A stretch of 64,000 nucleotides of DNA from positions 1-64,000 of the IMG/VR virus record IMGVR_UViG_3300013121_000023; one strand, given 5' to 3'. This DNA is from a virus (taxonomy: Duplodnaviria; Caudoviricetes). Each line of letters begins with the position of its first letter. Positions within the stretch are counted from its first letter, which is position 1. Shown piece by piece: positions 1,733 to 44,049 of the stretch. Made by a program: the position numbers and the translations under genes. The notes beneath the pieces are model-generated. The model did no database searches. It was not told the origin of the DNA and was given only the letters and a program-made list of their open reading frames with translations.

Positions 1733-2031
1733 TGACTAGGCGTCAAGAGATTGTGGCCCTGTTGGTGTATCTGGCGATATCTGCAATTTTTGTGGCTTGC
1801 ATCGTATTTTATGCGTTGTCTAGCAAGGAGGCTCTAGCTGCACCTAAAAAAGAGAACAAATGCAAACCAAGCATTCTCTACATAAATCCACAAATAGCAG
1901 CACCTATGGACTACGCTTGCCCAGATGTGGGACAGTGGACCATGACTGTTATACCCAGAATTGAATACGTAGTAATCGTTTGTGAGTGTCCAGGTACAGT
2001 ACACACCGTTAGTTACATGGGTATAGAATTA
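1732..2031 (+). CDS. membrane-anchored/secreted Cys-containing protein (TTA-terminated; standard ORF to 2085)
   Basis: N-terminal hydrophobic helix; GAA TTA TG overlaps the next ATG at 2031. Confidence 0.55.
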
Positions 2032-2240
2032 TGGCAAAACTACACAAGATTGTTTCCACTGATACTGAGTTTCTTCTGGAATTGACACCAGAAGAAGCTG
2101 CTAAAACAATTGGTCTTTTGGCCAAGCAGTTGGTTGATACAGACGGTGGGGAGTGCCCAACATTTTTGTCCCTACCGCCAGCAGACTCTTGCCAAACTTC
2201 TGTTGTTCGGTGCAGAATACATATAGTCATAGGCAAGTAG
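2031..2240 (+). CDS. hypothetical protein
   Basis: ATG coupled to the upstream TTA; 69 aa. Confidence 0.55.
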   Translation: MAKLHKIVSTDTEFLLELTPEEAAKTIGLLAKQLVDTDGGECPTFLSLPPADSCQTSVVRCRIHIVIGK

Positions 2241-2303
2241 GAGTCGAAATGGGTTGGTTTGTACTTTGTTTTCTGACAATACTAGCCGTAAGTGAGTACC
2301 TGT

Positions 2304-2720
2304 ATGACGAGTAATCTAAGAAGGAAACAAAGGGGCGCTAAGCAGAAGAACAAGAAACGAAGCGTAGTAGTTTCTGTTCGAGAATTGAAATCACAAGTTC
2401 TTTTGGAGTACAACACTGAATCCGGTATTGAGCCTATAAATAGGCCTAAAACTAGAGCTGATTGTGTGCGCGGTATCAGGCCGTGTCCTTATGTTTCTTG
2501 CAAGTACCATTTGTATTTGGAGGTGCGAAAAACCGGTAGTATAGAGTTTTTCTACCCAGACACAGACCTGGCAGAGATGAGCGCTCCTACCTGTGCTCTG
2601 GATGTGGCTGAAGGTGGAGCTAGGACGCTGCTAAAGATAGGTAAAATGTTCGGTGTATCCAGGGAGAGGATACGCCAAATAGAACAGAGAGTAGTGCGCA
2701 AGTTGAAGATGATAGAGTAG
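2304..2720 (+). CDS. sigma70 region-4-like HTH DNA-binding protein with Cys-rich N-terminal part
   Basis: TLLKIGKMFGVSRERIRQIE region-4 HTH signature; RPKTRADC..RPCPYVSCKYHL motif. Confidence 0.75.
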   Translation: MTSNLRRKQRGAKQKNKKRSVVVSVRELKSQVLLEYNTESGIEPINRPKTRADCVRGIRPCPYVSCKYHLYLEVRKTGSIEFFYPDTDLAEMSAPTCALDVAEGGARTLLKIGKMFGVSRERIRQIEQRVVRKLKMIE

Positions 2721-2726
2721 TGTAGG

Positions 2727-2760
2727 ATAGGGCGCCTATCGGCGCCTTATTCTTTAGCTA
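2727..2760 (+). terminator. hairpin terminator with TTTAGCTA tail
   Basis: ATAGGGCGCC-tatc-GGCGCCTTAT then TCTTTAGCTA. Confidence 0.7.
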
Positions 2761-2770
2761 AGGAGAGGTT

Positions 2771-3175
2771 ATGGGCGATTTTGATGGCTTTCATAAGGCT
2801 ACATTCGATCAGATACTAAATACAGAAGAATTGGCTTTGGTGTTTACTGACATAGACAGTTACACAAATTTCAGAGCTTCGTGGGCAGTCGACGGTGAGA
2901 ACAAGGAAGACCTAATAGTTCACTTCTTCCTGCCAGAAGAAGGCTCACCGGAAAAGCTATGGTTTAACTTGGGTGATACTCTTAAATTCGCAGCATCAGA
3001 AACATTCATGAACGCAAAGAATATACGAGTTGCTTATACAGATGAGATGAAGAGTTGGTGGGTTCGTATACATAAAGCAGCACACCCACTCTTTTCAACA
3101 TCTGATTTGGTCAATAAATACGTAGACCGCGTAGATACTATGTGCGATGCAATAAAAAGTACTTTGCTGGCATAA
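2771..3175 (+). CDS. hypothetical protein
   Basis: AGGAGAGG RBS, 134 aa. Confidence 0.7.
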   Translation: MGDFDGFHKATFDQILNTEELALVFTDIDSYTNFRASWAVDGENKEDLIVHFFLPEEGSPEKLWFNLGDTLKFAASETFMNAKNIRVAYTDEMKSWWVRIHKAAHPLFSTSDLVNKYVDRVDTMCDAIKSTLLA

Positions 3176-3177: not shown

Positions 3178-3196
3178 AATATGAAAGGAAGGTACC

Positions 3197-3484: not shown

Positions 3485-3495
3485 TTAGTTAGTTT

Positions 3496-3526: not shown

Positions 3527-3799
3527 CCTTGTTTCTATACATATCGTTAGCATGGTTCCTTTTATGCAAAATTCTTTTACAACAAAGCCGCTTTCTTTAG
3601 ATGCCTCAGTGAAATAATTTTTCATGTGCTTTTTTGATTCTTTACCTGGCTTACTGTTTAGAGCACAATAGCATTTGTATCCGTTTTTTGTTGGCAGGCC
3701 TGCGTATATGCCATTGAAGTGACCGCCAGCCCTTCTCAGGGCTTCATAAGCTTCCACAAACACGTCAGCTGGAGTCCTACATGTTTGAAGTTGATTCAT
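3524..3799 (-). CDS. hypothetical protein
   Basis: ORF ends at the terminator; start trimmed to MNQLQ. Confidence 0.5.
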   Translation of the reverse strand: MNQLQTCRTPADVFVEAYEALRRAGGHFNGIYAGLPTKNGYKCYCALNSKPGKESKKHMKNYFTEASKESGFVVKEFCIKGTMLTICIETR

Positions 3800-5622
3800 C
3801 TTACGACGCTCGTTTTTCGGCACTGTCTTACCTCACGGACGGAGCAGACGTACATACTGATGACGCTGACGATGATTCTCAGTGGAAAGAATTTACAGTA
3901 GAAACAACCGAAGACTGGTCTGTTCTACCTAAAAAAAGCAAGGTCATGGAGCTAGCTAGCTATGACCTTACTCCATCTGAATTTACAGAGGCGGCGTTTT
4001 ATTTCACCAGTCATGAGGACGGGTCTCCGGTACCTTTTTCTTTTGAAGGTAGGAAGTACCTAAGACGTGTTTATGACACACCGGCAAGAAAGGTGCTTCT
4101 GTGTTGTGCCCGTCAGGTAGAGAAATCTACAACGATAGGTAACAGGGCAATATCGTATGCGTGCCTTATACCGGGTTTCAAAATACTCTACGTATCTCCG
4201 TCTGCGCTACAAACCAAAACATTCTCTAATGATAGACTGAGAGAGCCCATCGATACCAGTGCGATACTGAAGCAGTATACGACTGGCATGTTGGCCAGAA
4301 ACATATTTGAGAAGCAGTTTGTAAATAGGTCTAAAATAACTCTTAGGTACTCATTTCTGACGGCTGACCGTGTTCGTGGTATACCGTCTTACGCTATTTT
4401 CATAGATGAGATACAGGACATCATATACGACAACATACCGGTTATAGAGCAGAGTGCTGCGCACGCTCCAGCTGAGTACAAGATGTTTCTGTACTCAGGT
4501 ACCCCAAAGACCTTGGACAACACTATAGAAGTGTTGCGCGCCAATCACTCCACCAAAGCGGAGTGGATGGTACCCTGTGATGCCTGCGGTTCTTCATCCG
4601 GTGCCGGTAGATATTGGAATGTTCTTGGGGAGAAGAACATACAGAAGAAAGGTCTTTCTTGTGAGCGCTGTGGGAAGCTCATAAGGGCCGACCATCCTGA
4701 CGCTGTTTGGGCAAATTCTGTAGCTCTGGATGGCAACGAAATACAGTTTGAGAGTTATCGAATACCTCAGCTGATGGTGCCTTGGCGCGCTTGGTCTGAA
4801 ATACTGGGCGATTACCACAGATATCCTAGAGCCCAGTTTTACAACGAGGTATTGGGAATATCATATGAAGACGGTATGAAGCCCATTACGGAGTCAGAGC
4901 TTCGTGAGCTTTGCATACCAACGTTGGAAATAGACGAAGAGAACCTGGACAACTTGCGTCGTAGATTGCTGGGCGGCACCCATGTCTACATGGGTATAGA
5001 CTGGGGCTACGGTCAGGGCTCTTTTACGGTTGTATCCCTTGGCGCTTACATGGAAAACAAGTTCACCGTTTTCTACATGAAGCGCTGCAATAACGAGCTT
5101 CTAGACCTAGAGCTACAGATGAAATTCATCATCGACCTGGCTAGAGCTTTCAATGTCAAATACATAGCGGCTGACTGGGGAGCCGGCTTCGGACAAAATG
5201 ATAAACTAACAAGAACTTTTGGGGCTGATAAGGTATTTAAGTTCCAATACGTAAACAAGCTCAGGAAAAAGCTAGCTGTTGATACTAAGATGGCCATCAT
5301 AAAGATGCATCGCTCTGAGATAATGAGCGACATATTTAGTGCCCTAAAGAGAGCGCAGCTAGCCTTCTTCAACTGGAATTCTTTTAGAACCTTTGCCAGT
5401 GACATACTGAATATATATTCCGAGTATTCGGAAACACAGAGGATGCTTCTGTACAACCACAACCCTAAAAGCCCTGATGATGCTTTTCATAGCATCTTGT
5501 ACTGCTTCATGGGGTCAATGATAGACAGACCTAGGCAGGACATCATAGTTCCGCATAAGGAAGACAAGACGAAAGGCCCAGTACACAATAACCTGTACTC
5601 AGGAAACGTGTACCAGGGCTTA
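3781..5622 (+). CDS. terL: terminase large subunit (TTA-terminated; standard ORF to 5730)
   Basis: Walker A ARQVEKST, Walker B IFIDE, SGTP coupling motif, two CxxC pairs (gpA-like), nuclease GIDWG and PDDAFHS; first TTA at 5620 removes a 105-nt overlap with the convergent gene. Confidence 0.9.
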
Positions 5623-5625
5623 TTT

Positions 5626-6318
5626 TTAGCTACTCAGCATAAGATTCTCTATGCGTCCGATGGCATCGGTACCGTTCTTTTTGTACTCTTTTATCGATGC
5701 CATTTCTTTCAAATAGCTATCTGTTGCTGAGTTTAGGTTTCTTTCGCTGACCTTTAGCAACCCATACGCTACGGCTAGGTGTGGATTTCTATTCAAATCC
5801 ACGTCTGCCTCGGTACCTTTGAGTACGCTTATTGTTTTTTTGAATAGTTCGGTTGCCGGCGTACCTAGCTTAGCCCTGTCTACTGCTAGTAGGTACCCTT
5901 CATCTATGGCTATAAAAAACTTTGCCCACTTCATAAGTTCTTGTTCGCTGTATGCAAGTTTTTCCCTTTTACACACCGCCAAACAAGCACCAACTACGTC
6001 TATAATGGCCTGCCTGTTGTCAGACAGTTTCTCATTTGCTCCCAATATGGTTTCGTATACATCGTTCATTTGGCGCTCAAGTTTGGCCAGTCTGAACATA
6101 ATGATACGGAGCATTTCTGTGTTTCTTTTGCTACTCCTTGACTCCAAACCAAGAAGGGTAAACTCTTTAAATGTTTCCAAGTCATACTTGGATACGTACT
6201 TCTTGGCTTGGTCCGCACCTTTAATAGGTATGGACCATCTCCTACACATTGTAATAAAATACTGGGTAGCAACACCCAACTCTTCTGCCGCCTGTGTTAC
6301 GCTGATCCATCCTTGCAT
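5626..6318 (-). CDS. HTH DNA-binding protein (excisionase/MerR-like N-terminus)
   Basis: WISVTQAAEELGV HTH followed by helical/coiled-coil region. Confidence 0.6.
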   Translation of the reverse strand: MQGWISVTQAAEELGVATQYFITMCRRWSIPIKGADQAKKYVSKYDLETFKEFTLLGLESRSSKRNTEMLRIIMFRLAKLERQMNDVYETILGANEKLSDNRQAIIDVVGACLAVCKREKLAYSEQELMKWAKFFIAIDEGYLLAVDRAKLGTPATELFKKTISVLKGTEADVDLNRNPHLAVAYGLLKVSERNLNSATDSYLKEMASIKEYKKNGTDAIGRIENLMLSS

Positions 6319-6368
6319 AGTCTTCAACCCGTATGTTTGCTAGATTCTTGGTAACGAGGTGTGTACCA

Positions 6369-7715
6369 ATGAGCGGTAACAACAACGATATCTACGACAG
6401 GCAGCAGCGTTTGGCACGCGCTATCAACCCATCTGAACTTGAAGTCATGGGTAAGGAGGCTGCTACGCGGTTCACCAACAAGAAGGCTGCCTCTCTAAAC
6501 GAGGCGGTTATATCAGTGGTGAAGACCGCTCACCTCTCCCCTGAGCAGGTGCGTAGGGTTGCTGAGTTCGCAAACCATAGCGCTTTCAGCACCGAGTTCA
6601 GGAAGATGGCTTCTCCGAAGGTAGTAAACTTTTCTGGAGGGCCAGCTGACCCAAATGTCATACTTCAGGAGCTTAACAGTGGCGGCGGCGGGAGTGTCAC
6701 CGACGACGGTAGCGGTGATTACGACTCTCCCCCCAAAACAGCGTCCACTGTACTTGATGCCGATGCTCTCACGAAGATGATGTTCGGCAAGACCGCAAGC
6801 GAGGTCACGACTACTGCCGGTGAGATGCCTCTCAGACCACTTTTCGAGTTGAAAGAGAAGTTGGCGCAAGCACAGCAAACTCTTTCTAACAGCTACACAT
6901 CGCATCGCATCGCACTAGACGACGCTCGTGAGCGTCTATATGCAAACGTGAAGATAGCTTCTTTGGAAAACGTACCTCTTGGCGATGTAGTAGCTGCTTG
7001 GTCTGTATTCGTTAAAGAACCCGAAGTAGTCAAGCTGGCCTTTGCTTCAATAGCTCCAAGACTTCTAAAAGACTTGGTTTTTAGAAGCGACGATCAGCTT
7101 AAGTCGTCCATGGAAAAAACGGCTGCTATAAAAGGCTCCGTGGTAAATACAGAACATCCTGTTGTAAAAGATTTTATATCTTTTCAGGATAGTCTGTACA
7201 AAGTGGCAGCTACCAAGGCAGCTATGGATGATGTAGATGACACGTTGTCGCGAACTGTAGCTGTTTTGCACAAACTGGCCTTTATTGATTCCATACCTAT
7301 GCCCAGGGTAGAGGCTTTTACTAAGGCCATGGGCGGCGCAGTTCCTAAGCTAGAACAAGTTACAGCCAGTAAGCAGGGACTTCTGCCTAAAGGTTGGGCT
7401 GCTGCCAAACATATAGGTAGCCATGTAGGTGCACACGTTGGCGATATAGTTGAGCACGGCTCTGAGCACCTACTAGGTAAAGGCGCTGTTCCTAAGTTCC
7501 TAGGAGACGCTGCCCATTTCGGCGTAAAGATATCTCCCGCAGTGGCTGCTATCCTAGCCGGTAATTACTTGTACGATCAAGCATCGGCTATGGGGAAAGC
7601 ACCTCTCGTACAAGATCTAGCCTCACTAGTACCAACCACTGACAGCCATACACTTGCTCAGATGCAGCGAGAAGGTTATTGGGCTGGTCCAACTGGTTTC
7701 TCACAGGGGTTTTGA
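6369..7715 (+). CDS. head morphogenesis/core protein rich in K-x-A motifs
   Basis: First gene of the head operon; KTAH, KTAS x2, KLAQ, KIAS, KTAA motifs. Confidence 0.6.
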   Translation: MSGNNNDIYDRQQRLARAINPSELEVMGKEAATRFTNKKAASLNEAVISVVKTAHLSPEQVRRVAEFANHSAFSTEFRKMASPKVVNFSGGPADPNVILQELNSGGGGSVTDDGSGDYDSPPKTASTVLDADALTKMMFGKTASEVTTTAGEMPLRPLFELKEKLAQAQQTLSNSYTSHRIALDDARERLYANVKIASLENVPLGDVVAAWSVFVKEPEVVKLAFASIAPRLLKDLVFRSDDQLKSSMEKTAAIKGSVVNTEHPVVKDFISFQDSLYKVAATKAAMDDVDDTLSRTVAVLHKLAFIDSIPMPRVEAFTKAMGGAVPKLEQVTASKQGLLPKGWAAAKHIGSHVGAHVGDIVEHGSEHLLGKGAVPKFLGDAAHFGVKISPAVAAILAGNYLYDQASAMGKAPLVQDLASLVPTTDSHTLAQMQREGYWAGPTGFSQGF

Positions 7716-7716
7716 T

Positions 7717-8604
7717 ATGCTGAATACAGACGCAATAGACGCCTTTCTGGAAGTTAGTGGTTTGGACAAAACCGCTAGTGCTCTAGATACGGCTAAACAA
7801 CTAGGACACGACGCCGTAGGCGCTATGCGTGCGGGAGTTATCGGCGGTGTTGGAGCCGCCGCCGCCGCAGGTATTCTTTCTGCCGGTGCTACTAGTGCAA
7901 GCGCTCTATACGATGCCGCCACAAAGCATAGAGACTATAAGAATATGATGCAGGCCTTTCCAGATCTGCAACATAGAAATCCAGATGACGTTCAGCGTGC
8001 TTTTACTACTGTCAGGTCTTTTGCTCCGAAGATCACGAAAGACCCTATGACAGCTGGGGCTGCTGTAAATGCTCTACTGCTAGACCCGCAGGCAGCGCAC
8101 GGTTTCGTCGGTGGCTTGACGGACATAGAACGCAAGATACAAAGCCCTGTGCATGAGATGCTTATGCAGGGAAGCTTGCAAGGTATGCGCTCAGGCATGG
8201 AGCATGATTTGTCGTCCAAGAGAGACGAAGCTAGAAGGAAGTTTGATACTTCCATGGCTGACAGGCAGGAAGCCTATCAAGGGTCTCGTGATATAGCTCA
8301 AGCCCTTCTTCAAAGAGAGCGTGACGATCTATCACGAACACACCAAATGGCTATGTCAAATGCACAGCTAGCTCAACAAAAGGAACTATCTCAAGCTCAG
8401 TCGCTTGGTAAGATGTGGTCTGATATAGCACAGATGCAGCATAGAGAGGATATGGCCAGAGACCAGAGGTCAGCGCAAGCAGACCAGCAGGAGGCCAACA
8501 CAAGACTCAGGGCTGCCTTGGATATGCTTTCTAAGCATACTCAAAGTACGGGCGGCAATCTGCACGACCTAGCGCGTAACATACATCGCGGACATGTGCC
8601 GTTA
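7717..8604 (+). CDS. virion (internal/ejection-type) protein (TTA-terminated; standard ORF to 8628)
   Basis: LDKTASA motif, Gly/Ala hydrophobic hairpin, coiled coil; CCG TTA TG overlap with protease ATG. Confidence 0.6.
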
Positions 8605-10286
8605 TGTTCAAATACAGTACATTCATAGGCACAGAAGAACAGCCCGCCTCTATCCCGATATTTGGTCCTAACGAAGACCATTTCGAGAAGACGGCTTCTC
8701 AGCTTGTTATTCTGCCAGCCGTAACTGACTTCATAAAGAAGCTAAAACCTCTTCCTGATTGTCAGTATGTACTGGTTTCGGCTCTGGGCGCGTCTGAGTA
8801 CTACTCGTCTAATGTGAACGGCGATGCCTTCAGTGAAGAGGCTCTTATACACTGCCCAGAAGGTTGGACAGGTAAGCCTCTTATAGACATCGATCTTGCT
8901 CGTGATTGGCCTTATGGGTTTCCTACGTTTTATGGCGGAAACCCATTTGGCTATCATAGGAACAAATCGTCAGACCTATCTTACGGTGGCGTAGAACTAG
9001 CTGTTTGGAACCCTCATATGAAGAGGGTTGAACTTGTGCTCCGCGTAGAGAAAGATAAATGTGTCGCTAGAGGCGGCTCGGGTATATGGGACAAGCTCCT
9101 ACAAGGAGTAGACGTACCTGTATCGATGGGGGCCAAAGTCCCGTGGGATAGGTGCTCCATATGTACAGATATGAAGCTGTACAAAGAAGCGCTCGCTACG
9201 TTTGATAAAAACAAGCACAAGCATCCAGGCATAGCTGTTCTAGAATTTCACAAAAAGCTAAAAGAAAAAAACGGTATCGGTATCAGAGGTATAGCTCCAA
9301 CAAGAAAAGACTACTGCGACCACGCACGCAGTCAGATGAATAAGATTCTGCCCAACGGTAAAAAGGTTTGGGTAGATAATGACTTTCCCAGATTCTTTGA
9401 TATAAGCTTTGTTATCATTCAGGCAGACAAAACAGCTTGGACTCTAGCGCATATAGCAAAAGGTGGAAACAAGACACACTTCTTTATGGGGCTATCAAGC
9501 GATGAGGCTGAAAAGAGAGGTTACGATCAAAGAGCTGATATGTTGCTCGATGTAGACTCTCTTGACAAAACAGCCGCAGATTTGTCTAAACAAGGCGCCA
9601 AGAACAAGTATGCTGAAATCACAAAGCGTGTGCTGCCGAATCCGTTGGCTGCCAAAGCAGCTCCTATCATGGGCAAATCGGAAAAAGATTTGCCGGATTC
9701 AATCATTCGAAAGATAGCCGAGCACAAAGACCTTGATAAAGCTCTGTCTACAGCTGGAAGTGCGGGCATTATATTGAAGCCAAAAGAGTTTCAGCGCGTC
9801 GTACTCATACGTATCGGCGCTGAACCATTGGCTGATGATATGCACAGGTGTTCATGCTGTTTTCATCACAACGATGCTAAGCACAAGATGGACATAGGGC
9901 CGCACAACATAGATGGTCTACTTCGCAGACTACTAGAACCACTCATGGGTATCAGGTCTGCACTAAATCCCCATGTAGATGGTAGGTCTGTAAACATCGT
10001 CCTAAAGGACAGTAGAGAAGTAGAAAAGAAAGCTAGCAGTGTACAAACACCGCTGTTTAACACCATTTCTGCTATGTATAACGGCTATAGAGAAGGTCTA
10101 TTGTCGTTTCTTGACAACGAAGAAAAGCTAGCAGAACATCACGAAACTGAAAAAAGTGCCGGTACCTACTTGTTTTCTCCACTATCTGAGGCGTACTATC
10201 AGTACACCTTCTGGGATGACATACCTGGGAGTGAGCTGGCAGCTATGCCACCGTGGAGAAGGCAACCCCTTCAGGGACCACGATAG
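8604..10286 (+). CDS. prohead (capsid maturation) protease
   Basis: NVNGDAF, GYH, VSMG(+CxxC), FFDISFV..AD motifs typical of phage assemblin-like proteases; lies upstream of scaffold and capsid genes. Confidence 0.7.
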   Translation: MFKYSTFIGTEEQPASIPIFGPNEDHFEKTASQLVILPAVTDFIKKLKPLPDCQYVLVSALGASEYYSSNVNGDAFSEEALIHCPEGWTGKPLIDIDLARDWPYGFPTFYGGNPFGYHRNKSSDLSYGGVELAVWNPHMKRVELVLRVEKDKCVARGGSGIWDKLLQGVDVPVSMGAKVPWDRCSICTDMKLYKEALATFDKNKHKHPGIAVLEFHKKLKEKNGIGIRGIAPTRKDYCDHARSQMNKILPNGKKVWVDNDFPRFFDISFVIIQADKTAWTLAHIAKGGNKTHFFMGLSSDEAEKRGYDQRADMLLDVDSLDKTAADLSKQGAKNKYAEITKRVLPNPLAAKAAPIMGKSEKDLPDSIIRKIAEHKDLDKALSTAGSAGIILKPKEFQRVVLIRIGAEPLADDMHRCSCCFHHNDAKHKMDIGPHNIDGLLRRLLEPLMGIRSALNPHVDGRSVNIVLKDSREVEKKASSVQTPLFNTISAMYNGYREGLLSFLDNEEKLAEHHETEKSAGTYLFSPLSEAYYQYTFWDDIPGSELAAMPPWRRQPLQGPR

Positions 10287-11159: not shown

Positions 11160-12341
11160 ATGTCAAATATCCAGGGTTCTCAATTTTCGAGATATCCAGA
11201 TACTTCTGTAGTTCCTGCTCCTCAGATACCGACCACCCCTGCTACCGGTTTGACTGGTAAGGGGTCTAAATCGATGGGTCTTGCCCCCAGACAAGCAAAT
11301 GCACCTGTAAATACTGGTTTTGCTACCACTGGTACAACACCAGATCCTACAAATGCATTCAAATCTGTTACGGCAGCCATTGATACGGTTTCACCTTTTG
11401 CCAAGACAGGCTCTACGATGAACTTCGCTATGCGACCGTCACTGAACGATATTCTAACTCATGCACTAGCTGGGGCATCGGCGGGCATCAAGCTAGCTGC
11501 TGAGGAAGACAGAAAAGACAAAGACCGCCGAGGCGAGAAGGACAAGGACGATAAAGAGAAGGATGCCTGTGGTCCTGGTATGAAAACGGCTTCTGCCGAA
11601 GATACCCATCTCTTGATCGATGCTGGTCGTTCTTGTGCAGATGGTCTTAGAAAGATCGCTGCTTCGCTAGAAGTTGGTGAAGTCGGTACGGCTAAGAATG
11701 AAGCTGGTACTGTTACTACGCCATCAGCCAGCGGTCAGCAGCCGCAGCCTACTGGGCATAGTGCAGCACATGGTAAAGAGCCCATGTCGCGTACTATGGA
11801 TGCTGGTAAGCAGATGCAGAATACGGAAACAGACAGACCTGGTGGTAATGAGCCCGGTCAGCGCATTTCTGATACGCTGGCTAAGAAGGCGTCTGCTGCT
11901 CCTATTTCGATGATTGCAAAGATGGCCTCCATGAAGGCTCCTATAAGCACCATCTTGAAGATGGCGTCTGGTACAGAGCCTGTTGGTCCCGGTACTGGTG
12001 AACCTGTGAGAGACGGTTCTCAGCCTGCTGGGCCCCATCCTGGCGGAAAGCCTGCTGGAGCTACACATGTTGTAGCTAGCAATCAAGCGGCTGTTGACTA
12101 CACAAAGCGGGATGCGAAAGCACCTGAAAAGAGAGAAGCCGCAAAGACTGTAGATGAGGCTATGCAGAGCGCTTCTACAGACCCAGTTCTAAACCAGGCT
12201 TTTGCCCATACAGGTGAAGCTGGGGCTAAGATAGCGGCTGCTATCATGTCCGGTAAGTCTGTAGACACTGCTATCATGCAGGCAGCGGGCCGAGCTGTTC
12301 TTACCAAGATTGCTGCGGCTCAATCGGGTAGGAGGGCGTTA
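11160..12341 (+). CDS. low-complexity head core/scaffold protein (TTA-terminated; standard ORF to 12368)
   Basis: Repeated KLAA/KTAS/KIAA/KMAS; GGAGG RBS then GCG TTA TG coupling. Confidence 0.6.
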
Positions 12342-12688
12342 TGTCCGACAGCTCAAAGTACATGCTAAAGGTTGCCACTATTGTGGATGAGCTAACCAAC
12401 AGGTTGGAGTCCACAGTAAGCGAAAGAGATAAGCTGGCTGCTGAGTTGGCTTCCTATAAACATAGGGAGCGTATAGAGAAGCTAGCCACAGCTCTGATTG
12501 ATAGAGACATCACATCAGATGCGCGTGAGCAAGTTATTGCGCGGCTTAGCAACGAATCACCTGATAAGCTTGCTAGCATCGAGGCAGGCATAGACTACAT
12601 AAGTCCAAAAATGAATCTGGGTGAGTTGGGCAATCCAGATGCGGGTGCTCTACACCCATTCGAGGCCCAACTACTCGGTCGTCGTTTA
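12341..12688 (+). CDS. coiled-coil scaffolding-like protein (TTA then TAG)
   Basis: Heptad pattern; position just before capsid genes. Confidence 0.6.
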
Positions 12689-13272: not shown

Positions 13273-14415
13273 ATGGCAAACGGGCTGACCCCTCAAGAGA
13301 TACAGCTAATGAACGATAGCTTTTCCGTTCAGGTTGAGACACCTGAAGGTAGAGCTAAATTCGCTGCCAGCGGTGGCGATTGGGTAAGAGACCGTCTTCG
13401 TGAAGACTCGTTTCTAGAGCAGATTGTGCCGATGGTCCCTGTGGTCAAGGCCGATTGTCAGCAGGCTCTAGATCACGACACGCTGGTGAAGATCATAGAG
13501 GTGGAGCCGAAGTCGAGAGCCCTGACTCTAGACTTCCGTTCGGGCCCCACAGTCAATTTCATCAGAGGCAAGCGTGTTGCTGCGGCCTTCTTCACTATCT
13601 CGTCCGAGATGATTCAGAAGACAGAGCAGGAGCTAGCTGCTTACAATATGCCCGTTACCAAGATCATCGAAGAGAACTCGGTGAAGGATATGGGCGAGAT
13701 TCAGGACCGTGAGTTCCTGATCAACTGTGAGGCAGCTGTGCAGGGTCTCCAGAAGGAGGCCAACGGCGGCACGATTACCACCCTAAACGCAACAGCTCTA
13801 CAGGGTGGTTCGCCTCCCGTTGAGTTCTCGGTTGTAAAGGGTGAGCTAGCCCGTGTTGCGTCTGTTGATAACGGGACCGTTTTGCCGATTCAGAGGCCTG
13901 ACTTCGTTAGGCTGATGAACCTGATCGACGGTAATCGTTTGCAGTCGAACATGGTGTTGATCACCACAGTTGACGCGAACAACACTCTTACATGGACCTT
14001 GGCCGACAACGGTGACCGTCTACAGTCGGAAACGGCTGTTGATGGGTATAAGTACAACACCTTCCTCGGCAAGCGCTTCATTAAGACCATCAAGACGGAT
14101 ATTCTCCGTCCTGGTAACGTGTATGCCTTTACGGATTCGTCCTTCTTTGCGAAGGCGTATCTGTTCAACAACACGAAGTTCTATGTTGATAAGCAGGCCA
14201 ACTGGATCACATTCCAGGCCTGGCGCGATGTGGCTATGAGCATCGTGAACGTTGCAGCTGTGCGCAAGCTAGAGCTGTACTCGGGCGATGCGACAACGAA
14301 CGATGCTGACAGCATCTTCTCGTCGATTTCGCCCAAGGAAGAGAAAGATCTGGGCGCGGTCAATAACCGCGTGGCTGAGGGTCTGCGTTATCCTCAGATC
14401 AACCCAGCCTACTTA
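13273..14415 (+). CDS. major capsid protein (TTA-terminated; standard ORF to 14427)
   Basis: About 380 aa, AGGAGA RBS, biased codon use, canonical position after protease/scaffold, followed by a terminator. Confidence 0.8.
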
Positions 14416-15069: not shown

Positions 15070-15570
15070 ATGGCGGCGTACCTTGAAGGCGTACCTTTGA
15101 TGAGCGACACAGTTCGTGGGTTTATAACCTCTGTACGCATGTACATGAGAGATCATCCCGAATTGAACAGGCTTATAAAGGGACAAGAGACCAGCGACAG
15201 AATGATTGCCTTTGCGGCAATGATTGCCCTGTCTCACTTCAATGGTACGCCGCCTGTTTTGGGTGATTTTTCTTACGACTATCTTTTGCCAAGGTACTAC
15301 TACATCCTTCTGCCTCTGACAGTTACAAAGGTGATTGAGTCGGTTGGTCTATTGCAGACCAGAAATCACCTGAACTATTCAGATGGCGGCCAGTCTGTAG
15401 GTGTGAACGATAAAACACCTCTCTTGATGAACTGGCTAAATTACTTTCGTTCTTGGGTCATAGAGGAACTCGGGCGTGTGAAAGTGTCGATGAACATCGA
15501 GCAAGCGATGACTTCTTACGGTGTTCACACAGAACTCTGGTATATCAACGGCCTCTATTTTGGCTACTGA
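15070..15570 (+). CDS. putative head-tail adaptor (neck) protein
   Basis: GGAGG RBS; size, helical pattern and position. Confidence 0.55.
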   Translation: MAAYLEGVPLMSDTVRGFITSVRMYMRDHPELNRLIKGQETSDRMIAFAAMIALSHFNGTPPVLGDFSYDYLLPRYYYILLPLTVTKVIESVGLLQTRNHLNYSDGGQSVGVNDKTPLLMNWLNYFRSWVIEELGRVKVSMNIEQAMTSYGVHTELWYINGLYFGY

Positions 15571-15577
15571 GGTAGTT

Positions 15578-17788
15578 ATGGACCATCTACTAAGACCGCG
15601 TATCAATCCGCTAGCTGCCTTGGAAGCCTTGGTGTTTTTCAAGCAGGCTTCTATCAACGATCCTCCTGACACTACAGGTCGTCTAGAAGGTCAGTTTCTA
15701 GCACCTATCCCAGATGTGTTGGCAGTTATGGCAGAACTCGTGAAGAACGAGTTTATGACTATCTATGCGTACAAAACTTACGCAAACTCTCTGCGTGGCA
15801 TGGCTCACCATTCTTTGGCTGAAGAGTTTGAACAGCACGCAGATGAAGAATCGGACCACGCAGACTTTCTTCTCAGAAGAATGGCCGTTCTAGGTGGACC
15901 CGTAAACGTCCCAGAGATACCTGCCCCACCTCCCGCTACAAAACCAGAAGAGATAGTTCAGACTCTTATTAGAGTTGAACAAGAAGGTATCGCTGGTTGG
16001 CGCCAACTAAAAGAAATGGTTGGCGAAAATAATCCCATGTACGTCACCATAGAAGAGTACATGGCGAAAGAGCAGGAACATCTAGACGATCTATGGCAGC
16101 TCATGCCATATGAAGCTCAAACACAGCAGATATCGAAACAAGCGTCACCACAAACATCTTACGGTAAAAAACTGATAGATTTTTTGGGTGGTGCAGCTGC
16201 GGCCCCGATTGTGCCTGGTATAGTTGGCATGGCTGGCCTTCTTAATAAGATACCAGAGGGTTTGGATGTTCCGCGTCACGTTCTAACCGGCTACGCGGCT
16301 GGATCTCTCGGCATTCCAGCGCTTGGAATGCTTGGCGCCTATAGACACGGTAAGAGCAAGAGAGAAGATGAAGTAAAGGCTCTGCAACTAGAGCTAGACA
16401 ATATGAAGAGGATGCAGGAACAGAATGCACCTTCTTCTATGGCCACCAATGATCAAGGTGGGTTCGAGGGCCAAGGCAGTAACTTGAAGTTCGCTGAAGA
16501 ACAACCGCACGGGAATATCCTAAATAGGATAGGCGGGTTCTTTGGTAGAAATCCCACTGTACTAGGTGCTCTAGCTACAGCTGCTAGTGGCGCACAACTA
16601 GCCAATTCAGCTGTACCCAGAAGTGCCGATTGGCAAACAAAACTGATGGCTACCGTGGGAGGGGCTACGCTGGGAGCTATTACTGGCGCTGCCGCTGCCG
16701 AAGTTAGACAAGGTATGAATGCCACTCAGTTGGCTCGTACCGGATTGAAGGTGGAAACGCCTTTCGGTAGTACTAGCGAAACAGGTAAACATCTGCTTTT
16801 GCAGGGCGCTCGGTCTGCATTCGCAAAAACAGCGAATGAAGATCCTCAACAGTGGCTCCTAAATGAGCGTATGCAAAATGCTCTACAAGAAAGAAACGAA
16901 GTAGAGCTGTATAGAATTCAGAAAGAGCAAGCAGAGCAGCAGGCTGCGCAAGCATCTCAACAGGCGCAAGAGTCAGCTGCACAAGCACAGCAGCTACAGC
17001 AGCAAGTAGAGTCGCATACGCAGCAGATGCAAGGTGTTTTGCAGCAGGCACAGATGCAGCAGCAAATGGCCACACAGAACGTGCAGAGCGCCGTTCAAAT
17101 GGCCAACCAATCTGCCACTGACGCTATGCAAGCCAACCAAAAGGCTCTGCAAACACAGCAGATAGCTGTGAATGCCAGGTCCGCCGTACAAAACATGAGA
17201 CAGGCTCTCATGGATATGGCATCGCAAGATCCGATGGCGGGTATGGAGCAGCAACTACAGGCTGCCGGTCAGCCCGCGATAAGCCCGATGCCTACTGCTG
17301 GCGCAGGTAATCCAGCTGTAGACCCAGCGGCTCTTCAACAGCAACAAGCTCAGGAACAGCAGATGATGGCAGAGCAGCAGGCAGCTCCACAGCAAGGAGC
17401 CGCTAAGACTGCTTCTGTTGAAATTCCTGCTGAACTTAAGGATAAACTGAAAGAAGGACTAAAGGCCGTCATACCCCCTCTTGGTGGAGCTGCTTTTGGT
17501 TTCGCTTTGTCCAAGACTGCTCCCGTATCTCAGAAATTGAGAGAGATGGAAGCTAAATACCAAGAAGAAGGTAGCGGTACCTTGGCAAAGGCTATAGCTA
17601 ACATGGCCAGTGGCCTAGAGGCTATGCAAGCTAATCCCAAGGCAACTGTTATGAGTGGCGTGGGTCTAGGTACTGCTGTCGGTCAACTGCACCGCCAGTA
17701 CAAGGAACATAGGCACTTTGCCGATACGAGTGATAAGGCGTTCAACCTCGCAAATAACCCACCTACAGCCAGTTTCCAGATGAGGTAA
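15578..17788 (+). CDS. virion polyprotein with ferritin/bacterioferritin-like domain
   Basis: E..EESDH..EQEG..EQEH di-iron ligand pattern flanked by KQAS motifs; Gly-zipper segments; Gln-rich coiled coil. Confidence 0.7.
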   Translation: MDHLLRPRINPLAALEALVFFKQASINDPPDTTGRLEGQFLAPIPDVLAVMAELVKNEFMTIYAYKTYANSLRGMAHHSLAEEFEQHADEESDHADFLLRRMAVLGGPVNVPEIPAPPPATKPEEIVQTLIRVEQEGIAGWRQLKEMVGENNPMYVTIEEYMAKEQEHLDDLWQLMPYEAQTQQISKQASPQTSYGKKLIDFLGGAAAAPIVPGIVGMAGLLNKIPEGLDVPRHVLTGYAAGSLGIPALGMLGAYRHGKSKREDEVKALQLELDNMKRMQEQNAPSSMATNDQGGFEGQGSNLKFAEEQPHGNILNRIGGFFGRNPTVLGALATAASGAQLANSAVPRSADWQTKLMATVGGATLGAITGAAAAEVRQGMNATQLARTGLKVETPFGSTSETGKHLLLQGARSAFAKTANEDPQQWLLNERMQNALQERNEVELYRIQKEQAEQQAAQASQQAQESAAQAQQLQQQVESHTQQMQGVLQQAQMQQQMATQNVQSAVQMANQSATDAMQANQKALQTQQIAVNARSAVQNMRQALMDMASQDPMAGMEQQLQAAGQPAISPMPTAGAGNPAVDPAALQQQQAQEQQMMAEQQAAPQQGAAKTASVEIPAELKDKLKEGLKAVIPPLGGAAFGFALSKTAPVSQKLREMEAKYQEEGSGTLAKAIANMASGLEAMQANPKATVMSGVGLGTAVGQLHRQYKEHRHFADTSDKAFNLANNPPTASFQMR

Positions 17789-18252: not shown

Positions 18253-18260
18253 GGTGCAAC

Positions 18261-19640: not shown

Positions 19641-19652
19641 GGCGGAACCAAC

Positions 19653-27968: not shown

Positions 27969-28006
27969 TAGCTAAATGAAAAGGGCCACCGTTTTGGTGG
28001 CCCTTC
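27969..28006 (-). terminator. terminator between convergent operons, TTTAGCTA tail on minus strand
   Basis: AAGGGCCACC-gtttt-GGTGGCCCTT; lies inside the standard-code ORF 27972-28637. Confidence 0.75.
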
Positions 28007-28013
28007 TCTTTTT

Positions 28014-29195: not shown

Positions 29196-29350
29196 TATTT
29201 TACCTCTTCAATATATCCACAATCTACGCATACTTTGACTTGAGTCATTTTAGTAGGTCTACCGCTTTCTGGAGACGATATAGTTACGTTGTTGTGCCCT
29301 TTCATGGAACACACGAATCTAGCTAGCACTATCTTCAGAAATCTAATCAT
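29195..29350 (-). CDS. small Zn-ribbon-like protein (51 aa, below ORF-track cutoff)
   Basis: MIRFLKIVLARFVCSMKGH...VCVDCG; resembles 51304 and 51564 genes. Confidence 0.5.
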   Translation of the reverse strand: MIRFLKIVLARFVCSMKGHNNVTISSPESGRPTKMTQVKVCVDCGYIEEVK

Positions 29351-38303: not shown

Positions 38304-38731
38304 CAACTCCTGAAGGGTGGGCTAGAGCATCCTTGCTTCTGCACACCCTGCGTGAGCCACCCCAAAGGGGGTCAGTTCAGGAGTTTGCGCTCACGCTTTT
38401 CATGTTTATGAAAGAACAGATAGAGCATGAAAAGCTGAGGGCTATCGCGCAAATCCTTCTAGATAAGGAATCAGGCGTAAAGGCCTTTGACGAGTACATC
38501 AAGACGGCATTCCCGTGGCACAAGACGGCTCAAGAGAGACACGACAGGGCGATAAAAGAGATGATGGAAAAAGAATTCTCTCGTGGCCCTATCGTCGTTA
38601 CGCCGCAGATAGTTGGGTCTCCTACCAGCAAGCTGTACAACAAAATGGTCAGTAGAGATCCACTAAAAGCACCTGTTGGTAATCCAGAAGTCTATAAGCG
38701 TATAGATAGGGTAGGGTCAAAGTTCCGATGA
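38291..38731 (+). CDS. -1 frame extension of upstream gene (G-T-like frameshift product)
   Basis: No convincing RBS/start of its own; -1 frame open from 38267 across the slippery heptamer at 38291-38297. Confidence 0.55.
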   Translation, partial: KKWLATPEGWARASLLLHTLREPPQRGSVQEFALTLFMFMKEQIEHEKLRAIAQILLDKESGVKAFDEYIKTAFPWHKTAQERHDRAIKEMMEKEFSRGPIVVTPQIVGSPTSKLYNKMVSRDPLKAPVGNPEVYKRIDRVGSKFR

Positions 38732-39150
38732 CTAACGTTATCTACATGTGTCCCAAGTGCAATAGTTCAATGGTTGAGGTATCTCCATTGATAGGCGCTA
38801 ATTCCACATGCAAAGGATGTGGTTTCGAAAGTTCGGCTTCTTCTTTTGTAGCTGTTCCAGTAGATGAAAGAACGCATGCCGAAGCTACTGAATTTTATAA
38901 AAAGGAGCTGAGGAGAAAGTTCCTTCTTTTGTTTTCAGCTAGCTGCGCTGTTCCTGTAGCCAGATTTCTTAGAGAGATAGGGCTGCTTAAAAACGGTACT
39001 AAAGAAGAGATGACGAACCAACTAGCTGGATATATTAAAGCTATGGGCGAGGCCATGTTTGTTGCCATGTTTAAACACATGGAAGAAGAAGAACGGCTAA
39101 AGTCTGAAGCAAGGGTAAAAGGTATCGACAATAAAAGAAAGGCAAACTTA
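38728..39150 (+). CDS. Zn-ribbon protein (TTA-terminated; standard ORF to 39159)
   Basis: CPKC..CKGC; AAC TTA TG coupling. Confidence 0.6.
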
Positions 39151-39824
39151 TGGAACTAAGTCTAAAGTTGATCAGCGTAGACGAGTCCTTTGTACTTAGT
39201 GAAGGGAAAGTATTGCCTGTTATAACACTGGAGTTGCCAGGCGGCATACTGATTAGGTCTTACGTATCTAAAGAAACCCAGGGCATTTTGACTGAGTTGA
39301 TACGTACGGTCTACAGTATACAAAGAGAAGAAGAAGTAGCGCATAGACAAGAAGAGCTAGATCAATATTCAGCACCACCAGAACCAAATGCGTTTTGGGG
39401 CGAGGTACAAGCTCGCAGGGCAGCCCAGGAACAACCATCCAGAAGACCAGCTCCAGCTCCGCCCCCAGTACCTGAGCAAGACACCTCGTATATGACAGCC
39501 CCTATGCCCATATCAGAGCTTATGGCTAGCAAACATAGGGAACGTCAGCAGCAAGCCGAGATGGCCCCGCCTATGGTCTTTGTACCAGGGCAATCACCAT
39601 CTGAGCCGTATTCGTACGTACCTGATGAAGAGGCCAATCAGCCTCCGCAGCCAATGGCTAGAGCCAGGGTTATACCTCAGCCAGAGAAAGCAAGAGGTCC
39701 GGGCCCTAGACCGTTTATGCCGCCCATGTCTGGAACCAGACAAATCATGACTGACGAAAAAGGTAACCCCATATTGCAGCACACTGCCGACGTAGCCAGT
39801 GTGCTGGGGGATTCAGACCTATTA
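39150..39824 (+). CDS. Pro-rich protein (TTA-terminated; standard ORF to 39869)
   Basis: CTA TTA TG coupling. Confidence 0.6.
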
Positions 39825-40297
39825 TGTATGTGTTTCCGTGTAGAGCATGTGGTGTGTGTACGCGAGTAGCTTCTGGAAGCGCTGATACTGCTTCTATTGA
39901 CTACTTGGTTGGTGAACATAGTCCATTTGCCGGTAACTATAAATGCTGCAAATGTGATTCACCGGTACATATACACAAAGAAATAGCTACTGCTGGGTCA
40001 GATCTATTGACAGGTCTTTCTTTTGTAGATCTGACGCCACAAGAGTTCTTTCAAGCGCAGCACGGTATAGGAGTACCGGCAGAGAGGGTTGTGACCAAAG
40101 AAGCCGTCGTGTCCCTCTTGACGCAAAATAAAGTCGTAGATGTAGTGGTAACGGTAGAGCAGGGCGACGTAGCTGTACACGAACTTCGACTGTCTAACGG
40201 ATACAGGTTGTATCTAGCCTCTACCATGGCCGGTCCAACTGTTTACAGAATAAGACCCCCACACAATAGGTCAGAACATGTTGCTACTCAGATATAG
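39824..40297 (+). CDS. Zn-ribbon protein
   Basis: CRAC..CCKC. Confidence 0.6.
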   Translation: MYVFPCRACGVCTRVASGSADTASIDYLVGEHSPFAGNYKCCKCDSPVHIHKEIATAGSDLLTGLSFVDLTPQEFFQAQHGIGVPAERVVTKEAVVSLLTQNKVVDVVVTVEQGDVAVHELRLSNGYRLYLASTMAGPTVYRIRPPHNRSEHVATQI

Positions 40298-41293: not shown

Positions 41294-41615
41294 ACAACTG
41301 AGACCGCACAATGACTCCGTTATTGTGCGGTTTATGCCGTTGGTTATGAAACGCGGGGCTATTCACCTTGTTAAAGGTGAAGACGTGTACAAAGCGACTG
41401 TACTAGCCGTTGGTCCAGGCAAGTACTACGGCGACAAAAGAGTGAAACCAGATGTGAAACCAGGTGACATAGTTGTCTTTCACAAAGACAACATGGCACA
41501 TAAATCTGGTAAGGCTCTTGTAAACGCTCTCTCTGACTTTGGTGAGGACATAATCCTTATCAAGGCCGGGGATATACTGTGCGTAGTAGACCCAGATACG
41601 GAGATAACTCTGTGA
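41280..41615 (+). CDS. groES: GroES-like co-chaperonin
   Basis: LRPHNDSVIV, VLAVGPG, VKPGDIV, DILCVV Cpn10 signature. Confidence 0.85.
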   Translation: MFRSEQLRPHNDSVIVRFMPLVMKRGAIHLVKGEDVYKATVLAVGPGKYYGDKRVKPDVKPGDIVVFHKDNMAHKSGKALVNALSDFGEDIILIKAGDILCVVDPDTEITL

Positions 41616-41866
41616 GGCTTGTAGAAAGAACGCAAGAGGGTCGTATAGAACTATGCTGGATGTGGCTACCTCATTGGTTGGCTACAAACAGAAACGCTCT
41701 GACTCAACTAGAGCAGGCTGTAGCAGCCAAGCTAGTTGGTCTAGAAATGACCGACGCTACTCTAGATCTAGCGCATGATCTAGTTGCTGACTCTCTACAA
41801 CGTCAGTACCCAGATGTAAAAGGTCTTCGTAACTATCTGGATTCTCTAAAATTTGTGAGCCTATTA
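41612..41866 (+). CDS. hypothetical protein (TTA-terminated; standard ORF to 41890)
   Basis: GTGA start overlap; CTA TTA TG coupling to next gene. Confidence 0.6.
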
Positions 41867-42414
41867 TGGAACAGCGTAGCGGTAGCCTAACTATTCCTAA
41901 AGGCGTTGGACCCAAAGGCGTTGGTGAAATAATAGCCAACCTCCTACTGTCCAACCCGTTCATATATACTTTCGATGTGAACGCTAGAGGTGTCCTTAGC
42001 TACCGCTACACTGTTAAGCCGGGTAGTGAGGAGCCTAGACCAGCTCTTAATATCGAAGGTTATACACCACAGGCAGTTGTAGCCAATGCGGATATGCGAG
42101 ATGTTCCTTATGACGAAAACGTAAGTGCCCACATAGTTCTGAAAAATGTATTTGATGCTATGAGCAGGGACAGGCTGTATGTAACTTGTTTCATAGCTGC
42201 CAGAAACTCGCCGTTCATGCTCTGGCTGTACCCTGAAGAGAAGACGCAAATACGTCCAAGTACTCTACTAGGGTACCCAGTGTATGAAGATCCCACTCTG
42301 CCCAAAGAGCGAATACTCCTGTGCGCCTCTGAGATACCTATGGGGTATATGCCTGATACGAGCGTCATCTACAACATATTCATGAATGGAGTAAGTGATG
42401 CATCGGTCTTGTAA
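41866..42414 (+). CDS. hypothetical protein
   Basis: Coupled start. Confidence 0.6.
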   Translation: MEQRSGSLTIPKGVGPKGVGEIIANLLLSNPFIYTFDVNARGVLSYRYTVKPGSEEPRPALNIEGYTPQAVVANADMRDVPYDENVSAHIVLKNVFDAMSRDRLYVTCFIAARNSPFMLWLYPEEKTQIRPSTLLGYPVYEDPTLPKERILLCASEIPMGYMPDTSVIYNIFMNGVSDASVL

Positions 42415-42895
42415 GATACTAATAGATTCTGGGGTAATTCCATCTAGTGTCGTAAGTGAGTTTACACGCTGGAAGACGCCTGGCGTCATGGTTTTCGATA
42501 CAGCAGAAGAAGTTGGGTCTGATAAAGTAGAAGACCCAGCTCTTCTCGTAGAAAAACTAAAAAGAGAAAATGAAGTAACGCCGGATATCATAGTCATGGA
42601 CTTTGATATCATGAGTCAGTTTTTCAGAACTAGAAGTTATGGAAAGCTGTTCATAGCCGGTACAGCGCCAGCTATACCTATAGAATTTGGATTGATAGCT
42701 GTAGGTAAAAAGCGTCTCTATATACTACCTAGTCCTAACCTTAGCCCAGATAACGTGGACTTTTTGGTAGAGGATATACTTGCCGACGGTCTTACTTATC
42801 TTGAGTATGGCAACGTCAAAGTGTACTTCACTGAGGTTAGTGAAGTCATGTCCGATGACAAAAAAGTGCTTGTGATATGCAAGCCATCGGAGTGA
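42395..42895 (+). CDS. hypothetical protein
   Basis: Operon ORF. Confidence 0.6.
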   Translation: MMHRSCKILIDSGVIPSSVVSEFTRWKTPGVMVFDTAEEVGSDKVEDPALLVEKLKRENEVTPDIIVMDFDIMSQFFRTRSYGKLFIAGTAPAIPIEFGLIAVGKKRLYILPSPNLSPDNVDFLVEDILADGLTYLEYGNVKVYFTEVSEVMSDDKKVLVICKPSE

Positions 42896-42898
42896 CAA

Positions 42899-43375
42899 AT
42901 GAGTCTTATACGTCAGCTGACCACAATGGGTGGGTTTGAACTAATACGCGATGACTCATCCGGCCCCGTAGCTAAGTATGTTGGTAGAGTTCTGAATAAA
43001 AAAGGAACTCCCGAATACGACAAATGGCTTTTCTGCGTTCACGCTGTGCTAAATACCTGCAACAACGTAGGTAGGGCAAACAACGTGGATATCTCTCAGC
43101 AAATATACCTAGATGACGATAACAAGCTCAGGTATGTTTGGCGGATAGTTTTGAAGGCCGACAGCGAAGAAGATCTGAGAGCGGTTCTAAATAGTTTGTC
43201 TGAGGCGGTAAAGAACATACCTATACCTAAGTCCGCTATAGAGACTACTACTGTGGCTACCGGTAGAAGAACTATGCAGGGTCAAAACGATCGCGGTAAA
43301 GGTGTCGCACTTACTGGTCAGGCTAGAGTCGGTCCCTTGCTTCAGGGACAGCTAGCAGCTTCTAGGAGAATGTTA
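42899..43375 (+). CDS. hypothetical protein (TTA then TGA)
   Basis: ATG TTA TGA with next ATG at 43375 and AGGAGA RBS. Confidence 0.6.
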
Positions 43376-44049
43376 TGAGTGGTCATATAAATGGTGCTCT
43401 AACTGTCAAAAGGGCCACGGAGGAAGAGAATTATCTCTTTGGTGAAATACTCTCACCGGAAGAGCGAGAGCGTCTAAATGGAAAGATAGAGGCTCTTCAA
43501 AAGCTGTTCTCCCTCGGTGACAAGACCAAGGTTCTGGGTACGTATAGGATTCATCTTATATTTGATGAAGAGCGCTCTATGCATCGCCCATACAGGGGTC
43601 TTGTGACCTTTTGGGTGAGCATGCGTAAGATGGATTCTGGTAGTGCCATGAGCATGTCTATTTGTCCTACAGAAGGTTGTGACAGACCATTTTTTGAGGG
43701 TCCACAAAACGGCGTATATGGATGCCCTAAATGCGGTAAGTCGTACAAGGGTACGCAGGTAAAGGACACCATATTTGCTAGGCTAACTACGCAGAACTGG
43801 GCAGATTTGGTGCTCAAGTGGTTTCTGGCTTTCAATAGCGACGCAGACGTGCAGATTACCTATTCTCCCAAAGATATTAGGGCAGCCACACAGCTAGAGA
43901 TTGCTAAAGACAGAAGGGGAGAAGAGATAAGGAAGGTTCAGAAAGAGATGACTACGCGCGAGTCTATCTTTCCGTTTGGCAGCATAGTCAAGGCTGCTTC
44001 TAATGGGGCGCCTCTACATAGACTCTTTATGAACTACATAAACGCATGA
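43375..44049 (+). CDS. Zn-ribbon-containing protein
   Basis: CPTEGC..CPKC. Confidence 0.6.
   Translation: MSGHINGALTVKRATEEENYLFGEILSPEERERLNGKIEALQKLFSLGDKTKVLGTYRIHLIFDEERSMHRPYRGLVTFWVSMRKMDSGSAMSMSICPTEGCDRPFFEGPQNGVYGCPKCGKSYKGTQVKDTIFARLTTQNWADLVLKWFLAFNSDADVQITYSPKDIRAATQLEIAKDRRGEEIRKVQKEMTTRESIFPFGSIVKAASNGAPLHRLFMNYINA

Follow-up and report, generated by a model that had tools for sequence, protein, structure and literature searches.

UUA as a predicted fourth stop codon in an environmental bacteriophage, and its use in TTATG stop-start overlaps

Reassignment of the leucine (Leu) codon UUA to stop is known from organelles: labyrinthulean (Thraustochytrium) mitochondria (NCBI table 23), peDinoflagellate plastids (UUA/UCA), and the mitochondria of Marsupiomonadales and Pseudoscourfieldia (UUA/UUG) (PMC12574857, PMC6821328). 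[quoted passage not shown] Our literature search returned no report of UUA (TTA) stops in phages or bacteria; UUA stops were found reported for organelles only. Here, we consider IMG/VR virus record IMGVR_UViG_3300013121_000023, a complete phage genome of 177,132 bp with direct terminal repeats, and in particular its first 64 kb (64,000 nucleotides, referred to as the window), in which seven open reading frames (ORFs) meet the following gene in the pentanucleotide TTATG. Judged from sequence, we suspect that in this phage UUA is not a Leu codon but a fourth stop beside UAA, UAG and UGA, and that TTATG is a stop-start overlap; we place the probability of this reading at roughly 0.85.

The proposed code resembles that of the organelles in several respects. 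The same codon would change in the same direction (Leu to stop) within bacterial-type translation; UUA is absent inside genes and present at the stops of homologues in a large share of genes; and trnL(caa) is present without trnL(uaa). Unlike the organelles, however, this is a bacteriophage that encodes no recognisable release factor, UUG remains a frequent Leu codon, and the trait is patchy within the family. The recoding of TAG or TGA to an amino acid (codes 15 and 4) is also a departure from the standard code at the level of the phage, and a suppressor-type tRNA(CUA) occurs in this genome too, yet the direction here is the opposite one, from sense to stop. Such sense-to-stop changes cannot be detected by Codetta-type screens (PMC9825746). 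Streptomyces phages, whose hosts have a bldA-limited transfer RNA (tRNA), likewise have gene bodies free of UUA, which is probably linked to a host in which tRNA for UUA is scarce or lacking (PMC10732093). Those phages simply lack UUA and are not known to end genes with it, whereas the phage studied here (46% GC) has it in 64 genes, at gene ends only.

The window carries the terminase, head genes and contractile-tail genes of a member of a large environmental phage family with genomes of about 100-200 kb. Within this family the phage is isolated, with a very long tree branch and a nearest terminase that is 56% identical. No terminase relative above 56% identity was found among 5.8 billion protein clusters, and megablast found no near-identical phage in the phage collection. 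Below, G000 denotes this phage's genome, and G001, G002, G003, L001 and similar labels denote the genomes or loci of relatives with which it was compared.

With the standard code, TTA is missing from 130 of 212 ORFs (33,904 codons), and 103 of the 138 in-frame TTAs lie no more than 60 codons from the stop. When the positions of all 61 sense codons are compared, TTA alone is terminal, with a median relative position of 0.93; 51% of its occurrences are located 20 codons or fewer from the standard stop, a share that is only 3-11% in all other codons. Recounting genes with TTA as a stop shortens the coding length by just 1.5% and gives 217 genes, of which 74 end in TGA, 64 in TTA, 53 in TAA and 26 in TAG. 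TTA-ended genes thus make up about 30% of the total (28/90 in the window, 64/217 in the genome), and they occur in every block of the window, including the structural block (14/31) and an AT-rich block of small genes (6/27).

A plain avoidance of a rare codon, of the type seen in Streptomyces phages, does not fit this distribution, since CGG is as rare as TTA but is spread evenly along genes. The sequence-only reading had argued that avoidance would not be sufficient, and we agree: TTA is frequent but confined to gene ends, where it falls exactly at the TAA, TAG or TGA of relatives. It could still be proposed that TTA is an ordinary, very rare Leu codon tolerated near C-termini, with true gene overlaps of 10-55 nt and TTATG arising by chance, given that each TTA-ended ORF meets a standard stop further on, the median distance being 9 codons. 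The terminal bias, in comparison with the equally rare but evenly distributed CGG, is left unexplained by this proposal, and further difficulties for it arise from the gene ends, junctions and terminators described below.

Alignments to relatives define homology-supported cores of 26,580 codons, of which 2,280 encode Leu, and these contain no conserved internal TTA. At the usage of L002 (33 TTA among 341 Leu codons, 49% GC), about 220 TTAs would be expected in the aligned codons; in L048 (44% GC), TTA makes up about 2% of codons. These relatives, close to the phage in GC content, thus employ TTA freely for Leu. Where TTA does occur inside aligned codons, it is limited to alignment ends, to positions upstream of a conserved start, or to positions opposite a relative's own TTA. 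In the large RNA-polymerase-like gene (2,100 aa; G000 158542-165207, plus strand), for instance, the conserved MAHLNPQEA marks the true start, some 85 codons after the beginning of the standard-code ORF, and the stretch upstream of it, with three in-frame TTAs, is non-coding. These observations also bear on whether a sequencing, assembly or editing artefact could have changed TAA to TTA, which is a single substitution. Such an artefact could not erase the approximately 1,000 sense TTAs expected, and a strand-symmetric TAA-to-TTA error would have made premature TAAs from sense TTAs, yet broken genes were not seen. Given, in addition, that G001 and L010, from independent samples, show the same pattern at homologous sites, we give this explanation almost no weight.

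The ends of conserved genes were compared with those of relatives. The large terminase (3781-5622, plus strand, 613 aa) ends in YQG followed by TTA at 5620-5622. Its homologues in L001, L002, L003, L005, L006, L012, L013 and L014 end in (Y/W)QG and then a standard stop, exactly at the position of the phage TTA, and the terminases of G001 and L010 end in QG-TTA. The next standard stop in the phage is 35 codons on, giving a standard-code version of 649 aa in a family of about 600-620 aa. Ending the terminase at TTA 5620 also eliminates a 105-nt overlap with the minus-strand ORF 5626-6327. The latter, which lies between the terminase and the next plus-strand gene, encodes 233 aa, is free of TTA and has no family match. 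The terminases of several family members (L009/L010/L050; P0068, P0102, P0104) are interrupted near residues 409-411, some with intein or LAGLIDADG domains (PF14890, PF14528); the terminase in the window is uninterrupted.

Structural genes end in the same way. A conserved 380-aa protein of the head block (13273-14415, plus strand; 57-60% identical in relatives), which is probably the major capsid protein, ends at TTA 14413-14415, and relatives end within 1-2 residues of this point. Further along, the standard-code ORF 18249-20534 splits at TTA 19638-19640 (plus strand) into two genes in the same frame, 18249-19640 and 19653-20534: homologues of the second begin at the residue aligned with M469 (ATG 19653), and the first part is a separate match. 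The tail sheath (21850-24960, plus strand) has the C-terminus PCNYIRVTLLI followed by TTA at 24958-24960, and the next gene begins in the same frame, at ATG 24997. This TTA is where the phrog_279 sheath profile ends, and a standard stop in the G001 sheath is aligned exactly with it. G002 and G003 carry the sheath and the protein encoded after it here in two distinct genes with 0.6-1.2 kb between them, and so the 1,315-aa sheath ORF of the standard code would be a false fusion. Several other TTA ends lie within 1-5 residues of the ends of relatives. If TTA were a rare Leu codon, both the fusion of the sheath with the next protein and a terminase 36 residues beyond the whole family would have to be accepted.

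The seven TTATG junctions that the sequence-only reading reported in the window, at 2029, 8602, 12339, 39148, 39822, 41864 and 43373 (all on the plus strand), are present at those coordinates, and in 7/7 the TTA is in frame with the upstream ORF. The downstream ATGs had been taken as true starts; this is supported in 7/7 by their being the earliest possible start of the ORF and by a coding signal that is positive from each ATG. Two ribosome-binding motifs, GGAGG at 12331-12335 and AGGAGA at 43364-43369, were found as described. The ordinary overlaps cited as parallels are likewise real: TGATG at 1730, and TAATG on the minus strand at 29197-29193, which links a 51-aa ORF (29195-29350) to 28737-29195. 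The six sites other than 43373 are 1-nt overlaps only if TTA is a stop, and become overlaps of 10-55 nt under the standard code.

At 2029-2033, ORF 1732-2031 ends and ORF 2031-2240 starts; the next standard stop is 17 codons on, within the next gene, and the coding signal tracks the downstream frame. At 8602-8606, ORF 7654-8604 gives way to a 560-aa gene (8604-10286) whose protein is aligned from residue 1 by eleven relatives. The equivalent junction is an in-frame TTATG in G001 and L010, TAATG in L003, and a standard stop followed by a short spacer in G002 and G003. The junction at 12339-12343, preceded by GGAGG, joins ORF 11160-12341 to ORF 12341-12688, which itself ends at TTA 12686; conserved homology in the upstream protein ceases at about residue 386, ahead of the TTA at codon 394. 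Two junctions follow one another at 39148-39152, where ORF 38728-39150 ends and ORF 39150-39824 starts, and at 39822-39826, where the latter ends in frame at TTA (standard stop 14 codons on) and ORF 39824-40297 starts, the homologues in relatives aligning from its residue 1. At 41864-41868, ORF 41579-41866 ends and ORF 41866-42414 starts. The upstream gene in G001 has an in-frame TTATG at the aligned position that opens a different gene (a 70-aa ORF), and its homologue in G002 ends in TAA. The last junction, TTATGA at 43373-43378, is preceded by AGGAGA and joins ORF 42899-43375 to ORF 43375-44049.

The overlap is more common than chance would predict, as the sequence-only reading had expected. 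Across the genome, TG follows 19 of the 64 TTAs that end genes, compared with 9.5% of all TTA trinucleotides (binomial P=5e-6), and in 15 of those 19 the ATG is the earliest start of the next called gene. Within the window alone, the count is 9/28 terminal TTAs (P=8e-4), or 7/28 under a stricter criterion (P=0.014). In a standard-code count, the third base of TTA doubles as the first base of the next ATG in 13 cases, and no other codon reaches more than 6; TTA makes up only about 0.2% of codons, yet it is the top codon for sharing with ATG. No extra sequence context of TTA stops was found apart from TTATG. The junctions also persist in relatives, with an in-frame TTATG retained in G001 at the equivalents of 8602 and 41864 at protein identities of 28-46%. 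By these measures the predicted stop shares a nucleotide with a true downstream start, in an overlap that is both commoner than chance and conserved. The enrichment is a further feature for which a rare Leu codon offers no account, and we consider that explanation to have only a minimal chance of being correct.

The geometry is that of the standard stop-start overlaps (ATGA, TAATG and TGATG) of bacteria and phages, with one shared nucleotide in operon-like strings of genes, and a separate Shine-Dalgarno motif is often absent from those overlaps, as it is from the phage TTATG. The same phage genome also has about 30 ATGA overlaps in addition to TGATG and TAATG. What differs is that the stop half of TTATG is a sense codon of the standard code, and that TTATG (19/64 TTA stops) is far above the phage's own TAATG (3/53) and TGATG (5/74). 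We suggest that a ribosome would complete the upstream protein at UUA and could reinitiate at the AUG that shares its A. This would couple the translation of the two genes, in most cases with no Shine-Dalgarno motif for the second.

Signals around the TTAs are those of gene ends. Ahead of TTA the coding signal stands at +0.34 per codon; beyond TTA it falls to -0.22, compared with -0.06 beyond ordinary stops. Both TTA and ordinary stops have the next standard stop at a median of 9 codons downstream (P=0.62), and the rates at which the next gene lies in the same frame are similar for TTA (3/64), TAA (4/53), TGA (3/74) and TAG (3/26). On the minus strand, TTA 53745-53743 is followed after 5 nt by the hairpin of an intrinsic terminator (53737-53715) with a T tract (53715-53745 in all); the standard stop of this gene is 25 codons further, which would place the terminator inside the ORF. 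A terminator-like hairpin called on the plus strand at 27981-28005 lies between convergent TTA-ended genes, which end at 27954 on the plus strand and at 28016-28014 on the minus strand (feature 27981-28016), and under the standard code the minus-strand gene would cross the hairpin to 27972. Terminator hairpins also directly follow the TTAs at 113380 and 123830, outside the window. As a Leu codon, TTA would require terminators inside ORFs and a loss of coding signal within them. The bias in position, the ends of homologues, the coding signal, the terminators, the frequency of same-frame neighbours and the conservation in a relative all agree with termination at UUA, which had been proposed before these comparisons.

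A related idea is that UUA could be a conditional stop, governed by a regulated, bldA-like host tRNA-Leu(UAA), whose presence would cause read-through into extended or fused, non-functional proteins and by which the phage would sense the state of its host. In Streptomyces the UUA tRNA is developmentally limited and the phages are usually without UUA; for the terminase of phage Hau3, a recoding dependent on UUA has been put forward (PMC10732093). No feature of the phage studied here connects it to an actinomycete. After TTA the next standard stop comes as soon as it does after an ordinary stop, which gives no sign of selected back-up stops or extensions, and the tails after TTA have a negative coding signal. 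We therefore regard a conditional stop as highly unlikely.

The phage encodes ten tRNAs, including tRNA-Leu(CAA), tRNA-Leu(UAG) and the suppressor-type tRNA(CUA). A tRNA with anticodon UAA was not found in the phage genome, even with relaxed thresholds, and neither an RF-1 nor a PCRF domain was found in the complete phage genome or in G001. With its own tRNA-Leu(CAA) and tRNA-Leu(UAG), the phage would have UUG and CUN decoded, and UUA never. Codon usage in the phage is distinctive, with ATA at about 60% of isoleucine codons, AGA and AGG as the main arginine codons and CTA as the top Leu codon; the tRNA cluster at G000 123406-126253 (UAU, UCU, UAG, UAC, UGU, UUU and CAA) matches the favoured codons. 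This suggests a host whose codon usage is very different from that of the phage, and which is probably GC-rich.

The absence of both a tRNA-Leu(UAA) and a release factor gene in the phage would equally be expected if UUA were simply an unassigned, or hungry, codon. In that case, ribosomes lacking a tRNA would stall at UUA, and rescue or drop-off would free the peptide, perhaps aided by a protein with a peptidyl-tRNA hydrolase 2 (PTH2) domain. The phage has a gene with such a domain, itself ended by TTA, and its tRNA set (AAA, GUA, ACA, AUA, AGA, CUA, UUG) would be consistent with a high-GC host in which UUA is the rarest codon. However, about 30% of genes, including those for abundant virion proteins (the sheath and the probable capsid), use TTA, and slow stalling or tagging by transfer-messenger RNA would be costly for such virion proteins. 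Known rescue systems act on truncated messenger RNAs, which also counts against stalling at UUA. Finally, a ribosome parked on UUA would hide the overlapping AUG, yet TTATG is enriched. On balance, we consider a hungry codon unlikely, although less so than a conditional stop.

We instead favour UUA as a stop at which release is probably efficient and mediated by a factor. Efficient release is suggested by the use of TTA in genes for abundant virion proteins and by the preference for TTATG, since the AUG would be covered by a ribosome that stalled. By analogy with the organelles, the likeliest agent would be a bacterial-type RF2 with widened second-base specificity, and this would be provided by the host because the complete phage genome is without a recognisable class I release factor. 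If the AT-rich block of small genes is expressed early, the UUA-stop activity may be present from the start of infection. Five proteins common to the phage and G001 but not G002 or G003 were considered as determinants of the code; of the four that were scanned against Pfam, three gave no match and the fourth is a dCTP-deaminase-like enzyme, which was set aside because such an enzyme does not act in translation.

The tRNA(CUA), which reads UAG, lies outside the window at G000 135413-135485 (minus strand), just downstream of the dCTP-deaminase-like gene (135521-136186, minus strand); that gene is present in G001 and not in the standard-code G002 and G003. TAG is the least used stop and still ends 26 genes, and the genome has no sign of broad TAG recoding. 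The PTH2-domain ORF (G000 112507-113380, plus strand; L055:7508-8380) ends at TTA 113380, directly before a terminator. A 188-aa ORF shortly upstream of it, in the same frame, ends in TAG, such that TAG read-through would fuse the two. Elsewhere in the window, the head/tail block includes a 755-aa protein (15521-17788, plus strand) with a ferritin/rubrerythrin-like domain (Pfam PF00210, E=1e-17).

Attempts to connect the phage to a host gave little. Metagenome-assembled genomes (MAGs) holding relatives of the terminase span many phyla, and binning is therefore uninformative. One MAG labelled Myxococcales (G005) holds a G001-like phage contig, and its RF2 has RRQTAF instead of RRHTSF, with a normal SPF motif (L063/L078; G005:C185:50292-50864). 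In the approximately 90 kb of G005 that were examined, TTAs are too few for judging their position. The RRQTAF variant of RF2 occurs in 41 of 401 sampled genomes of the same phylum, among them the complete genome G377, in which TTA lies mid-gene (median position 0.44 in the 400 kb examined). RRQTAF is thus ruled out as a marker of TTA as a stop.

As to how the code comes about, there may be two possibilities, both of which we advance tentatively and regard as rather doubtful. One is that loss of UUA decoding is imposed by the phage as a weapon. Infection would remove UUA decoding, for example through inactivation of the host tRNA-Leu(UAA), and the phage would supply Leu(CAA) and Leu(UAG). Host messages containing UUA would then be truncated, and phage messages, which are without internal UUA, could use it as a stop and coupling signal. 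The other possibility is that the host bacterium itself uses UUA as a stop.

Some observations weigh against UUA as a stop in this phage. Among relatives with about 50% terminase identity, the majority decode TTA as Leu, and the trait is narrow and patchy within one family. The junction at 43373 is ambiguous, given that its TTA abuts TGA and so also forms a standard ATGA overlap for which no new code is needed. At five of the seven window junctions, a clear Shine-Dalgarno motif is absent and reinitiation is suggested by the geometry alone. For the gene upstream of the 12339 junction (11160-12368 under the standard code), a weak alignment to L001 and L012 continues beyond the TTA at codon 394, but the tail aligned there is Cys-rich and of low complexity. 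The C-termini of the gene products are, moreover, predictions from DNA alone.

From the perspective of the evolution of the trait, the relatives are informative. G001 (107 kb, 60% GC) and L010, both from other metagenomes, share the genome-wide pattern of long ORFs that are free of TTA, and in both the homologue of a 738-aa protein ends at TTA; in G001, TTA occurs only at gene ends. The 21.6 kb of L001 are entirely free of TTA. In a tree of the RNA polymerase, the phage groups with G001 and L001 (support 98/95). We suspect that UUA was reassigned by codon capture, in which TTA was lost in a high-GC ancestor and later reused as a stop, and the relatives fit this scenario. The contrast among them, with TTA read as Leu, absent, or found only at gene ends, may offer a rare view of codon capture underway.

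If correct, the interpretation presented here has consequences for how such genomes are read. Standard gene callers would mis-annotate them, extending C-termini, calling long overlaps that do not exist and wrongly joining the sheath to the protein that follows. The TTATG overlaps would indicate that the new stop has become part of translational coupling, a point in favour of efficient termination over stalling. Should the host itself use UUA as a stop, it would be a free-living organism with a sense-to-stop code. Termination at UUA in this phage raises the question of which factor in a bacterial cell reads UUA as a stop, and it would extend a sense-to-stop change reported for mitochondria and plastids to a virus translated by a bacterial cell.

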